Part shown: in pieces, positions 24,581 through 29,925 of the stretch
Layout: each line of letters opens with the position of its first letter
Position numbering within the stretch: the stretch's first letter is position 1
DNA from: a virus
Lineage: Duplodnaviria; Caudoviricetes
Strand: one strand, 5' to 3'
Length of the DNA stretch: 64,000 nt
Virus record (IMG/VR): IMGVR_UViG_3300013383_000002
Coordinates: 57,437-121,436 of that record
Program-made: the position numbers and the translations under genes
The notes under the pieces: model-generated
What the model was told of the DNA's origin: nothing
What the model saw: the letters and a program-made list of their open reading frames with translations, nothing else
Databases searched by the model: none

Positions 24581-24674
24581 GCTCCCATAGTGTAATGGCA
24601 ACACACCCGGCTTATACCCGGCATTGGCTCCAGATTAGAGCACGTTCTTGGTTCGAGTCCAAGTGGGAGTACCA
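24581..24674 (+). tRNA. tRNA-Ile (TAT) with long variable arm
   Basis: GCTCCCA/TGGGAGT, loop CTTATAC, variable hairpin GCTC..GAGC, GGTTCGAGTCC, CCA. Confidence 0.8.
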
Positions 24675-25382: not shown

Positions 25383-25768
25383 TTTTATTTGGAATCAATA
25401 GCTTGTCCACCTTTGGGCGGCCCGTAATAGCCGGACATTTGAAAATTTCTTCTCGTAAATGTTTGAAATTTTTCTGATTTTTTGATATAATATTTACAGA
25501 AAGTGAGGGAAACGAAAATGGAAACTGAAACTCCGAGGAAGCCCGAAGAAAAGAAAATGTCTCCCGAACAACTTGAGAAGTGGACGGCGCTCCGTAAGAA
25601 ATGTCAGGTCTTTCCTTCTCGGAAGCCTTATACCAGAAAAGTCAAGCACAAAAATCGTGAAAAAGAAAACTCTGAAACTTGAAAACCTCCTAAATTTTTG
25701 ATATAATATTTATACAGAATGAGAGAGGAACTGGTCTTTTCCTTTCTACCAGTTCCTCTCTCGCTAAA

Positions 25769-25900
25769 AGTCCTAATGTGGCTTACTTAAACCATCCGAT
25801 GTAGTTCAACTGGATAGAATACCGCATTGATAAAGCGGAGCTTCCGGCCTTCGGGTGGTTGGTAAGCAGTCCCAAGCCTGCGTAAACACAGAGGGAGACT
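25769..25900 (+). ncRNA. twister ribozyme (type P1) with large P3 insertion
   Basis: AGUCC-UAA-UGUG-GC-[P3]-GCAG-UCCCAAGC-CUGC-GUAAA-CACA-GAGGG-AGACU matches the twister core; predicted cut at 25774/25775. Confidence 0.8.
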
Positions 25901-26049
25901 AATAGCGACGTTATGGTTGCAAACATAGCGTTCAAAACTTCGAGACAGGCAAGTCTTCAGCAGTGGATGTCTGATGAAACAACGACGGCGAAGGAGTCGC
26001 GACCTTCGGAGGAGCCGAGATAAACCTACGGGTGGAACCGCCATCGGAG
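25795..26049 (+). ncRNA. tRNA-like RNA with ~180-nt expansion
   Basis: TCCGATG/CATCGGA stem, D arm GTTCAACTGGATAGAAT, anticodon-like arm CCGC..GAT..GCGG; no canonical T loop. Confidence 0.5.
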
Positions 26050-26269
26050 AAAAAGGAGTTTGTTAGTCACACCAGTTTCGTGGTTCTGGAACAAAACCGC
26101 CTGGCGCAACTCCTATGGCGCTATATAAGTAGAATAGGCGTAGTCTGACATGACGAGACGTTCAGAAGTTTCGATGCGTGGGCTTATCTATAAAACTCAT
26201 GCTGGGTCTTTGGGCCTTTTACCTCCTGTGTGAAACAAAAGGCTCAGACTTTTATAATTGGTGTATTGA

Positions 26270-26866
26270 ATGAAGAAATGGGAGAATTTTTCTAGAGAAG
26301 AAATTGAAAATTTTGTAAAAGAAAGTCGTAGCTATCGTGATTTGGCACTAAAATTAGGTTATGGCAGCGCGATTGCTATTATAAAGTCAATGACTCAAGA
26401 ACTAAATTTAGACACTTCTCATTTCACTGGTCAAGGTTGGAATAAGGATAATTTTGATTATTCAAGATTTCAATATGGAAAGAAAATTCGTGGAGCCACT
26501 ATGATTCAAGCATTGACAGCTTTGAAAGGTTGGAAATGTGAGAATTGTGGATTGACAGAATGGCAGGGACAGAAAGCACCTCTTGAAGTTCATCACATAG
26601 ATGGCGATGAACTGAATTCTGTTTTAGAAAATCTTCAAGTCCTTTGTCCTAATTGCCATGCTTTGACTGATAATTATAAAGGGAGAAATCAAAAGAAGCA
26701 AGGCGGTTTGAAAGTGTCCGAAGAAGTTCTAGTAGAAGCTTTACGCGAAGCTCCAAATATTCGTCAGGCGCTACTTCGAGTAGGACTAACAGCAAAAGGC
26801 GCCAATTATATTAGAGCAAATGAACTTATTATAAAATATCAAATAGAAAAGCATCTGAAAAAGTGA
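26270..26866 (+). CDS. HNH endonuclease in tRNA cluster
   Basis: CENC...LEVHHIDGD..N...NLQVLCPNCH. Confidence 0.9.
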   Translation: MKKWENFSREEIENFVKESRSYRDLALKLGYGSAIAIIKSMTQELNLDTSHFTGQGWNKDNFDYSRFQYGKKIRGATMIQALTALKGWKCENCGLTEWQGQKAPLEVHHIDGDELNSVLENLQVLCPNCHALTDNYKGRNQKKQGGLKVSEEVLVEALREAPNIRQALLRVGLTAKGANYIRANELIIKYQIEKHLKK

Positions 26867-26869
26867 TAT

Positions 26870-26954
26870 CTGCGCGTGGTGGAAATGGCATACACATCTG
26901 GTTCAAGCCCAGATGCCTTAGGGATTAAGAGTTCGACTCTCTTCGCGCAGACCA
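26870..26954 (+). tRNA. tRNA-Leu (CAA)
   Basis: CTGCGCG/CGCGCAG, TCTGG-TTCAAGC-CCAGA, variable arm, CCA. Confidence 0.85.
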
Positions 26955-27034
26955 ACCAGTATTATTGCTGGTGGGAATGCTACCAAAAGTGCATCCTTGG
27001 TCATGGGAGGTTGTAGGATAAATGACCTAATATT

Positions 27035-27103
27035 GCGCTGGTCGTCTAAAGGTAGGACATCGGACTCATTATCCGAAGACAACGTTCGATTCGTTCGGGC
27101 GCA
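27035..27103 (+). tRNA. tRNA with CAT anticodon (Met or Ile2), no encoded CCA
   Basis: TCGGA-CTCATTA-TCCGA, D arm GTCT..GGAC, AACG-TTCGATT-CGTT; one acceptor mismatch. Confidence 0.7.
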
Positions 27104-27104
27104 A

Positions 27105-27162
27105 GACATCTAAAAGAGAATACCTCCACGTGGTAGATGTCGGGTAACGCTAAATTCTCTTT
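27105..27162 (+). ncRNA. HDV-like (theta) ribozyme at tRNA 3' end
   Basis: P1 GACATCT/AGATGTC, P2 AAAGAGAAT/ATTCTCTTT, P3 ACC/GGT with loop TCCACGT, J4/2 GCTAA. Confidence 0.85.
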
Positions 27163-27765
27163 GTACCTTGAAAATAAAATACTTTAGAACTCGATGATAA
27201 ACACTCCGCGACTAGGAGTGTCGAGGCGTCTTGGAAAGAGGATGGCAGACAACGAGCAAGGATACTTGCAGATACTGACCAGTGCGCGCGACGTGAGTTG
27301 CGTGCCATAGAGGATGAACTCCCAATCCCACGAGACGGCATTGGGGTCAACGCAAGTAAAGGTAGGACGCGCGTCGCTAACGTAATAGAGGCTCTCAAGA
27401 TAATTGAGGCTGAATCCTAATCTCCCTTAGCTGGTGACTGTGGGCGGAGCAATTTGGTTAGGAAATAACCACAAGTTAGTTTGCTGTGAAGCGAAGAAAT
27501 TCGTGTATAAGACGTGTATGAGAACTCTGAGTAGCCAAAGGCAAGCTCGTATATTATTTTTACAGCTATTATTATTGGAAAATGCTGAATGGTTGGTGAA
27601 AGGTTCTGGTAATCAATCCAGAAAAGACTATGCGCACGAAAGTGCGGCTATGAGAAGTATGCGCGGGACGCTGTGTATGCTCAGCCTCATGGTGCTTTTG
27701 ACTGAATATGCTTGAAGTTGATTTCGGTAGGTTGAAGAACCCAAAGTATTTTATTTTCAGGGTAT
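27163..27765 (+). ncRNA. large structured RNA, ROOL-like
   Basis: ~600 nt without a credible ORF, closed by a 23-bp terminal stem GTACCTTGAAAATAAAATACTTT/AAAGTATTTTATTTTCAGGGTAT, many internal hairpins; family call rests on size and tRNA-cluster context. Confidence 0.7.
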
Positions 27766-28373: not shown

Positions 28374-28445
28374 ATTGATTGAGTTTTTATGGTACGTGAC
28401 CACTTAGAAACAGAAAGGAAATATATCCCAGAAAAGGAGAATAAA

Positions 28446-29084
28446 ATGAAAAGAAATGAAGACCTCGGACTACTTCCGCTAGTCCAAATTCCGGAAAGCG
28501 CGAATTATTCACTCCCCGATGATAATCTCCTGTCGTTCTACAATGATTTGGAAGAACGATTACTTTGGGTGACAGATGGAATTGATAGCTGCTCTTTGAA
28601 TATTATCCATTATATTTTGAAGTGGAATCGTGAAGATAAAGGAATTGAAGTTTCCGCGCGGAAGCCTATCAGACTTCTTATTTTTAGTCCCGGAGGCGAA
28701 TTAGATGTTTTTACTGCCATTGGCAACATTATTCGTCTTTCAAAAACTCCTGTCATTGGTATCAACATTTCTTGTGCTTATAGCGCCGCGGCGATGATAC
28801 TTCTAATGTGCCATAAGAGATACGCTTTGAGTAATGATGTTTCTGTTCTTTTCCATCAGGGAAGTTGTTCTGGTATTCAGGGAACTTATGACCAGATTGC
28901 TAACTTTATGAAGGAATATGATGAGCAGGTTGCTCGTCTTTCTCAGGTTATTCTTGATAGAACTTCGTTTACAAAAGAAGAAGTAGATGAAAAGATGAAA
29001 AGTGACTGGTATGTGTCCGCGCGCGAAGGAGTCGAGCGTGGTGTATATGATGGTATCATTTCTTCTATTGATGAACTAATCTGA
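28446..29084 (+). CDS. clpP: ClpP-like serine protease
   Basis: PIRLLIFSPGG, AYSAAA (Ser), LFHQ (His), DWYVSAREG..G..DGI. Confidence 0.82.
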   Translation: MKRNEDLGLLPLVQIPESANYSLPDDNLLSFYNDLEERLLWVTDGIDSCSLNIIHYILKWNREDKGIEVSARKPIRLLIFSPGGELDVFTAIGNIIRLSKTPVIGINISCAYSAAAMILLMCHKRYALSNDVSVLFHQGSCSGIQGTYDQIANFMKEYDEQVARLSQVILDRTSFTKEEVDEKMKSDWYVSAREGVERGVYDGIISSIDELI

Positions 29085-29094
29085 GGAGGTCTAA

Positions 29095-29925
29095 ATGGAC
29101 TATACAGGAATTAGAGAAGTTTCGCTTAGTCAAGAAGAGTTAGCGCAATTTTATCAAGGGGAGTATCCAATTCCCAACTTATTGGAGAACCAATACGTTT
29201 TTCTTCGTGGTGAAACGGGGGAAGTTGTGGATAAGCTCTTCTGGCGCGCAGGAAAACTTGAAAGAGTTCCTTATACTGTTTTTTCTTCTGATTTTATGGG
29301 AAAAATAAAGCCACGCAATCCAGAACAAGAGTGCGCCTTTCACCTTTTACACAGTCAAAACATTAGAGTAAAGTTGATTACTGGCCGATTTGGTTCTGGC
29401 AAATCCATGAGTATGATTGCGCAAGCTGTTGAAGCATTAGATAAGGGTGTAGTTGATAAAATAGTCTATGTTCGCAACAATATTGCTGTGCGCGACACCA
29501 CTGAGCTAGGGGCACTTCCTGGATCAGAAATAGACAAATTATTACCATATTTGATGCAGTTCGCAGACCACGTCGGCGGCAAAGAAGCTCTTATAAGAAT
29601 GATTTCTGAGGAGAAATTAGAACCAATTCATCTAGGATATTTGCGCGGACGAGACATCAGAAATTCGATTATTTATGTTACAGAAGCACAAAATCTAACA
29701 GTAGACCATATCAAATTACTCCTTGGGCGAGTTGGAGAAGGGTCTTATCTTTATCTTGATGGAGATTTTCACGCGCAAATTGACCGTTCTGTTTTTGAAC
29801 GTTCTCCCGGCCTGAAGAGACTAATCGAGGTTTTAGCGGGTAATAAACTGTTTGGTTATGTAAATCTAGTAAAGTCAGAGCGTTCTGAGGTTTCTGCCTT
29901 GGCTGATTTACTAGATGAGAATTGA
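29095..29925 (+). CDS. phoH: PhoH family ATPase
   Basis: PRNPEQ, GRFGSGKS, LGALPG, YLRGRDI, EAQN, GRVGEGS, ERS. Confidence 0.9.
   Translation: MDYTGIREVSLSQEELAQFYQGEYPIPNLLENQYVFLRGETGEVVDKLFWRAGKLERVPYTVFSSDFMGKIKPRNPEQECAFHLLHSQNIRVKLITGRFGSGKSMSMIAQAVEALDKGVVDKIVYVRNNIAVRDTTELGALPGSEIDKLLPYLMQFADHVGGKEALIRMISEEKLEPIHLGYLRGRDIRNSIIYVTEAQNLTVDHIKLLLGRVGEGSYLYLDGDFHAQIDRSVFERSPGLKRLIEVLAGNKLFGYVNLVKSERSEVSALADLLDEN

Follow-up and report, generated by a model that had tools for sequence, protein, structure and literature searches.

A predicted type-P1 twister ribozyme with a tRNA-Ile(GAU)-derived P3 arm at the head of a phage tRNA and non-coding RNA operon

The question raised by this locus is what kind of RNA is encoded where the motif of a small self-cleaving ribozyme and the arms of a tRNA share the same short stretch of phage DNA. 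The window analyzed here, that is, the whole stretch of 64,000 nucleotides, covers the right-hand 64 kb of an IMG/VR phage genome that is complete at 121,436 bp and carries direct terminal repeats. Between approximately 23.9 and 27.8 kb, it contains a non-coding island with six tRNAs, a drum RNA and a ROOL RNA. A first-pass annotation of this island proposed a twister ribozyme interlocked with a tRNA-shaped RNA of about 255 nt, the two possibly forming a switch. As discussed below, the locus is best read, with a probability of roughly 0.6, as a ribozyme-plus-tRNA processing module that heads a phage tRNA and non-coding RNA operon. Its interest lies in this architecture and in the operon context, not in the proposed switch.

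The beginning of the operon is marked by two elements, the first of which confirms the earlier suggestion of a promoter upstream of the ribozyme:

25679-25707, + strand: sigma-70-type promoter, with TTGAAA, a 17-nt spacer and TATAAT, and TG before the -10 element (11 of 12 consensus matches)
25721-25762, + strand: leader hairpin of 15 bp with a 12-nt pyrimidine loop, CUUUUCCUUUCU, in the minimum free energy fold

The twister starts 62 nt downstream of this strong consensus promoter, which has six more related copies across the phage genome. The leader hairpin is nearly invariant, with a pairwise difference of 0.5% over 12 phages, and it is thus preserved although the predicted twister cut would remove it.

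Some other characteristics of the surroundings were also observed. An ORF at 25503-25682, with its own consensus promoter at 25463-25491, would encode a small basic protein of 59 aa with the C-terminal sequence RKPYTRKVKHKNREKE; this C-terminal end is also conserved ahead of the promoter in L032, and the match of the ORF to Pfam DUF7230 is weak (18.3 bits, cut-off 27). The tRNA-Ile(UAU) at 24581-24674 has an additional hairpin of about 20 nt in its variable region, and the relatives keep this tRNA at 92-95 nt. Just 3′ of the island, at 28389-29925, there are genes for a ClpP-like protease (PF00574) and a PhoH-like ATPase (PF02562). The sets of tRNAs vary among close phages, as seen by comparing L010, L014, L018 and L025 with the window; relatives add tRNA-Asn(GTT) or tRNA-Ser(GCT), and their tRNA-Leu occurs in two forms, of 74 and 83 nt. 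In general, the island is rapidly reshuffled among relatives, while the twister core stays fixed.

The first step in answering the question is to establish whether a whole ribozyme is present. Twisters are a class of ribozymes reportedly described by Roth et al. in 2014. The first-pass annotation had named the elements of a full twister core, and each of them was found where it had been placed:

25769-25900, + strand: type-P1 twister ribozyme, whole span (positions 1-68 of 68 in the covariance model R1)
25769-73 with 25896-900, + strand: P1, four pairs and one C/A mismatch
U25774/A25775-A25776, + strand: cut site in the conserved core, with predicted cleavage between U25774 and A25775
25777-80 with 25887-90, + strand: P2, UGUG with CACA
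25781-82, + strand: the GC that follows P2
25866-69 with 25878-81, + strand: P4, GCAG with CUGC, with the loop UCCCAAGC at 25870-77
25883-86 and 25891-95, + strand: UAAA and GAGGG

All of the conserved core nucleotides are present, namely UAA at 25774-76, GC at 25781-82, the loop GUCCCAAGC at 25869-77, UAAA and GAGGG, and an alignment comparison shows that they coincide with the invariant columns of 21 unrelated twisters. The junction reads GCU instead of GCC, a variant that is shared with two unrelated twisters. From these 21 aligned twisters, which were gathered by a core-pattern scan of viral and bacterial collections and include none of the phage group, the covariance model R1 was built; it holds P1, P2, the base of P3 and P4. 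R1 matches 25769-25900 with 56.2 bits (E 4e-15 for the region and 5e-13 for the 64-kb window), which is its sole match in the window, and its alignment treats about 75 nt within P3 as an insert. In the pairing scheme that we take to be that of the published structures, the pseudoknot strands (the GC after P2 with the GC of the P4 loop, and the loop CCC with the GGG of GAGGG) are invariant and 100% paired in 12 of 12 sequences. P1, P2 and P4 are also 100% paired in the 12 family members, and they show no variation, hence no covariation. Judged by its sequence, the ribozyme architecture is complete, and by architecture the element is a genuine type-P1 twister.

A search with the Rfam twister-P1 model (RF03160), which had been suggested as a check, gave a divided outcome: the 3′ half alone was aligned correctly, but the score of 25.7 bits lies below the gathering threshold of 67.2. 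This sub-threshold score says little, because the Rfam threshold is a strict one, reached by only 2 of 10 plain twisters from the core-pattern search, taken as a control. In addition, the Rfam model misses the window twister owing to the roughly 75 additional bases in its P3 arm. P3 tolerates such cargo, since other natural twisters carry inserts of approximately 40-80 nt in this arm.

The second step is to identify what the P3 arm contains. The elements of the arm are the following:

25783-25865, + strand: P3 arm, with basal UUAC 25783-86 and GUAA 25862-65, an internal loop and then 5 bp
25790-94 with 25856-60, + strand: P3 extension helix, AACCA with UGGUU, continuous with the tRNA acceptor stem
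25795-25856, + strand: tRNA-Ile(GAU)-derived insert, recognized with the Rfam tRNA model and from relatives
25795-801 with 25849-55, + strand: acceptor stem of the insert
25804-20, + strand: D-arm sequence
25822-38, + strand: anticodon arm, with GAU at 25829-31

It had been noted at first pass that the arm encloses a D arm and an anticodon-like arm. Both are indeed present, and the relatives carry a full tRNA at the same place. In the window, AACCA and UCCGA (25790-99) pair with UCGGG and UGGUU (25851-60), so that the discriminator base and the trailer of the tRNA are paired with its 5′ leader in the P3 extension. The acceptor stem has one U/U mismatch and one G-U pair, the T loop and one strand of the T stem are deleted, and no CCA is encoded. 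According to the alignment, the deletion comprises 11-12 nt with respect to the relatives and lies between two TCCGG repeats; P3 is about 83 nt long in the window and about 95 nt long in the relatives. Because of the loss of the T loop and the T-stem strand, the Rfam tRNA model RF00005 gives the insert only 23.2 bits, skipping the T arm (threshold 29), and ARAGORN calls no tRNA in the P3 insert of the window. In its lowest-energy fold, the arm forms a rod that ends in the anticodon hairpin. The nested tRNA lacks an encoded CCA, which is encoded in five of the six other tRNAs of the island. Read from these features, the P3 arm is a tRNA-Ile gene whose T loop has disappeared in the window phage, and the module is a twister in its architecture and, by its origin, a tRNA derivative. 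Most likely, the tRNA part has ceased to function as a tRNA and has been retained as a long, branched P3 arm by which the ribozyme stays closed. Since there is no second tRNA-Ile(GAU) in the phage genome, the tRNA seems to be dispensable while the ribozyme is kept.

The relatives help to understand how this arrangement is maintained. Pattern scans of viral and metagenome contigs provided twelve further sequences with the same architecture, from phage contigs of about 90-120 kb. The tRNA-like insert is conserved in these homologues: 10 of 12 relatives carry a complete, compact tRNA-Ile(GAU), in which the T arm is followed immediately by the nearby 3′ acceptor strand. These intact copies have a full cloverleaf, a canonical T loop, G18G19, U33 and the GAU anticodon. 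ARAGORN places a tRNA-Ile(GAT) exactly within P3 in six of the seven relatives scanned, and the Rfam tRNA model scores 42.1-54.9 bits at the nested locus in 10 of 11 relatives, the exception being L010, for which it finds no match. The T loops of the family include the canonical UUCGAAU, UUCAAAU and UUCGAGU, an 8-nt loop (UUUGAGAU), a non-tRNA hairpin in L010 and the deletion in the window. L010 combines its non-canonical T loop with a weak acceptor stem, yet it shows a compensatory change in the anticodon stem. This pattern hints that the arm is selected for something besides decoding.

Covariation was assessed in an alignment of 12 sequences, as the first-pass annotation had suggested, and it separates the two pairings under discussion. 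The structure that joins the twister with the local cloverleaf is 94% paired with four compensatory pairs, a result reached by 0 of 500 shuffles, while the pairing with the strand at 26042 fared poorly (see below). Two pairs of the P3 extension helix show compensatory changes (AACCA/UGGUU, AACUA/UAGUU and AGCCA/UGGCU). The phage group is narrow and this covariation rests on few events; an all-against-all analysis of column covariation is too noisy with 12 close relatives. Pairwise, the family differs by 0-1% in the strands of the twister core, 3-4% in the D and anticodon arms, 20-26% in the T arm and 7-33% in the RNA that follows the ribozyme, and a neighboring protein of 557 aa is about 79% identical between the window phage and the others. 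From these values, the RNA core appears strongly constrained and the T arm does not. As judged from the alignment, the ribozyme core is under strong purifying selection, much above its surroundings, and the T arm is relaxed or diversifying.

The family seems to be confined to this group of phages in the collections that were searched. The 557-aa neighbor, used as a query both as a single sequence and as an alignment, retrieved the same phage group only and no more distant relatives, and blastn of 25690-26270 against GenBank phages gave no match. The twister pattern found 20 twisters over the GTDB species genomes, with no member of the family among them and no tRNA in any of those with a large P3. 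No other tRNA in P3 was seen among 43 twister hits from viral and bacterial genome collections. A pattern that joins a T loop with a twister found only family members in viral contigs, besides one chance hit (L081). The sequences L031, L033-36 and similar ones, which were retrieved with an anticodon-plus-twister pattern, were rejected as chance matches in coding DNA.

The ribozyme is followed by several other elements of the operon:

25901-26250, + strand: X, an uncatalogued structured RNA formed by a chain of hairpins, several of them covarying (RNAalifold)
26270-26866, + strand: HNH endonuclease gene between X and tRNA-Leu (Pfam PF01844, 27.1 bits, cut-off 21.4)
26870-27161, + strand: tRNA-Leu(CAA), tRNA-Met(CAT) and an HDV-like candidate, in this order
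27035-27103, + strand: tRNA-Met(CAT), with no encoded CCA
27105-27161, + strand: HDV-like (theta-like) ribozyme candidate (RF02682, 25.9 bits, E 0.006, threshold 44 bits)
27166-27761, + strand: ROOL RNA

Over the full alignment, RNAalifold identifies compensatory changes at 13 pairs, and the covarying hairpins of X include 25906-35 and alignment columns 488-512. X matches no Rfam family, even at E<=10. Its end adjoins tRNA-Leu directly in most relatives. In L010, L025, L045 and L046, the 3′ part of X is replaced by another sequence with a terminator-like hairpin and a U run. The HNH gene is present only in the window phage and L018 within the alignment, an insertion pattern typical of a mobile, free-standing homing endonuclease. 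The HDV-like candidate begins one base past tRNA-Met and ends 4 nt before ROOL. Two further candidates in this region were rejected: a hammerhead in X near 25970 (CUGAUGA...GAAA), whose essential G is an A in five relatives, and a short ORF after 26059, which in the relatives meets a stop after 10 codons.

The following element bears on the proposed switch:

26042-26048, + strand: CAUCGGA, distal partner of the acceptor 5′ strand by complementarity

In this proposal, the 5′ strand of the acceptor stem has two alternative partners: the nearby strand, which would leave the ribozyme competent, and the distal CAUCGGA, which would give a tRNA-shaped RNA of about 255 nt that contains the 3′ half of the ribozyme. 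The complementarity itself stands, as UCCGAUG at 25795-801 and CAUCGGA at 26042-48 are perfect complements and the match of 7 bp is kept in 11 of 12 sequences. In addition, the nearby acceptor pairing is the weaker of the two 7-bp helices owing to its U/U mismatch and G-U pair, and in L011 a G-to-A change at acceptor position 7 is accompanied by a C-to-U change opposite. Nevertheless, a functional pairing has weak backing. Of 7-mer complements that join the ribozyme/tRNA part to the downstream 343 nt, this is the sole one against a chance expectation of 2.9. The distal helix is 98.8% paired with a single compensatory cell, the one in L011, and 76 of 500 shuffles of the 12-sequence alignment reach the same; moreover, L010 has the same G-to-A change without compensation. 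By contrast, a rival local helix between CCGA 26015-18 and UCGG 26044-47 is 100% paired, which only 2 of 500 shuffles reach, and the C/U variation at 26045, the other variable base of the distal strand, has its exact counterpart there in G/A at 26017 (G-C to A-U in four sequences). The UCGG core at 26044-47 is thus better supported as a partner of CCGA than of the acceptor strand. Enforcing the distal helix costs 7.6 kcal/mol, with the tertiary contacts of the twister not counted, while the P3 extension helix, which belongs to the local fold, covaries. The complete, compact tRNA of the relatives uses the nearby strand, so the window version is a tRNA with its T loop deleted and not half of a giant tRNA. 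Finally, the distal strand is transcribed about 150 nt after completion of the ribozyme and therefore cannot gate the cut. The interlock and the tRNA-shaped RNA of about 255 nt are not supported, and the switch is regarded as very improbable.

Other explanations differ in what they make of the ribozyme and of its arm. The twister might be an inactive relic, its likeness among the phages reflecting recent common descent only; no helix of the catalytic core covaries, P1 is short and has its C/A mismatch beside the core, and the Rfam threshold is missed. However, most control twisters miss this threshold too, the conserved twister nucleotides are all intact, and the core diverges by 0-1%, against about 21% (amino acid) in the neighboring protein and 20-26% in the T arm, which makes a relic highly improbable. 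The conservation could also be attributed to a protein gene on the opposite strand, ORF 25787-26044 of 85 aa, as open stretches of 53-100 aa occur there in all 12 sequences. Their frame and limits vary between phages, however, the length differences of 10-13 nt are not multiples of three, several frames are open together, as expected from a low content of stop codons and not from a gene, and conservation tracks the RNA helices. The ORF was thus rejected as a gene, and this explanation has a practically negligible probability. A more serious competitor, which we still consider unlikely, is that the arm is a working, non-decoding module on a composite RNA with a 5′-OH. It would mimic the anticodon arm of tRNA-Ile and bind or distract a host or defense factor (an anticodon nuclease, a modification enzyme or a synthetase), with the twister only trimming the leader. 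In its favor, all 12 sequences retain the D and anticodon arms (the loop UUGAUAA included), which diverge by 3-4%, and the T arm can change or vanish freely. L010 preserves its anticodon stem by a compensatory change in spite of a T loop and an acceptor stem that have ceased to resemble those of a tRNA; the window phage retains the arm without a T loop; and the helix that runs through the acceptor end would be expected to disfavor excision. On the other hand, most relatives have a canonical T loop and pass the tRNA model, as for a decoding tRNA, no binding partner is encoded nearby, and the conservation of the arm may only reflect the need to avoid misfolding of the ribozyme. Moreover, we know of no nuclease that targets tRNA-Ile(GAU).

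The preferred reading, a processing module at the head of the operon, can be laid out as a series of steps, in which catalysis by the twister, the benefit of the cut and the cleavages by RNase P and RNase Z are all inferred. Transcription from the promoter at 25679-25707 would produce the stable hairpin first and then the type-P1 twister. Once the 3′ strand of the ribozyme is made, the RNA would be cut co-transcriptionally between U25774 and A25775. This would free the hairpin leader, together with any RNA read through from upstream, with a 2′,3′-cyclic phosphate end. The remaining RNA would receive a 5′-OH and consist of a 20-nt leader, the tRNA arm, the 3′ half of the ribozyme and X, of about 350 nt. 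Neither RtcB nor an RNA ligase, both possible users of such ends, is encoded by the phage. As the predicted cut lies 20 nt upstream of the tRNA, it would make no mature tRNA end. In the sister phages, the intact tRNA could be excised by host RNase P and RNase Z, which is possible because the nested tRNA is complete and CCA-less there; a tRNA without an encoded CCA fits the RNase Z route of Bacillus tRNA processing. On excision of the nested tRNA, the ribozyme would be divided in two and X would gain its 5′ end; the 3′ end of X would come from the action of RNase P on the tRNA-Leu that follows. The helix through the acceptor end may, however, hinder both enzymes. In the window phage, the arm would merely close P3.

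A bolder version of these ideas, which is best taken as speculative, considers the ribozyme-tRNA chimera as a single unit. Either the ribozyme would be taken apart by the host tRNA enzymes, which would set free three RNAs one after another in a fixed order, or the arm would stay on a composite RNA of about 480 nt with a 5′-OH. In the latter case, it would act as a mimic of the tRNA-Ile anticodon arm directed at a host factor, and the 26042 strand might serve as its alternative partner once the RNA has been cut.

To our knowledge, the biological roles of bacterial and phage twisters are largely unknown. Here, a twister is fused to a tRNA gene at the head of an operon that also comprises tRNAs and several large RNAs yet to be explained (drum, ROOL, X and a probable theta-like ribozyme). 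This offers a concrete, testable setting in which phages may pair small ribozymes with host tRNA-processing enzymes in order to cut polycistronic non-coding transcripts. It also indicates that standard annotation misses ribozymes with large inserts, as Rfam called neither the window twister nor the nested tRNA. Furthermore, the natural series of intact tRNA, altered T loops and deleted T loop beside an invariant ribozyme core is a ready-made test of the role of the arm.

In comparison with known systems, the element shares with the type-P1 twisters of RF03160 the core, the order of P1, P2, P3 and P4, the complementary segments of the two predicted pseudoknots and the expected cut before a conserved A. 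It differs from them in that its P3 is a tRNA gene joined through the acceptor stem, which the Rfam model cannot span. With respect to tRNA-Ile(GAU) as modeled in RF00005, the window copy differs in that the T loop and one strand of the T stem are absent, no CCA is encoded, and the acceptor stem, with its U/U mismatch, runs into a ribozyme helix. No publication on a twister with a tRNA inside it emerged from the literature searches. As far as the sequences indicate, a tRNA gene nested in a ribozyme arm appears to be a new combination of a ribozyme class and a tRNA that are each known.

A parallel is offered by the theta ribozymes, which are minimal HDV-like ribozymes that adjoin phage tRNAs; they lie directly 3′ of the tRNA and trim its trailer (PMC10879173). 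As in these systems, a small self-cleaving ribozyme is coupled here to a CCA-less phage tRNA within a tRNA cluster. Unlike in theta, however, a different ribozyme class wraps the tRNA, and the predicted cut falls 20 nt upstream of it. Within this operon, the theta-like candidate lies 1.2 kb further downstream, immediately behind the tRNA-Met without a CCA, and resembles the published arrangement (PMC10879173). The setting is also shared with the large RNAs ROOL, GOLLD and drum (PMC5737381), as ROOL and drum are interleaved with tRNAs in the island. X matches none of the three, and no self-cleaving ribozyme or nested tRNA is known in them.

Finally, the architecture can be compared with engineered RNAs, as in both a tRNA body and a functional RNA share a continuous helix and their folds coexist. 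Engineered tRNA scaffolds and tRNA-ribozyme fusions serve to stabilize or process recombinant RNAs, and the passenger is placed in the anticodon arm. In contrast to these designs, the phage element is natural and its arrangement is reversed: the tRNA is the passenger, within the arm of a ribozyme.
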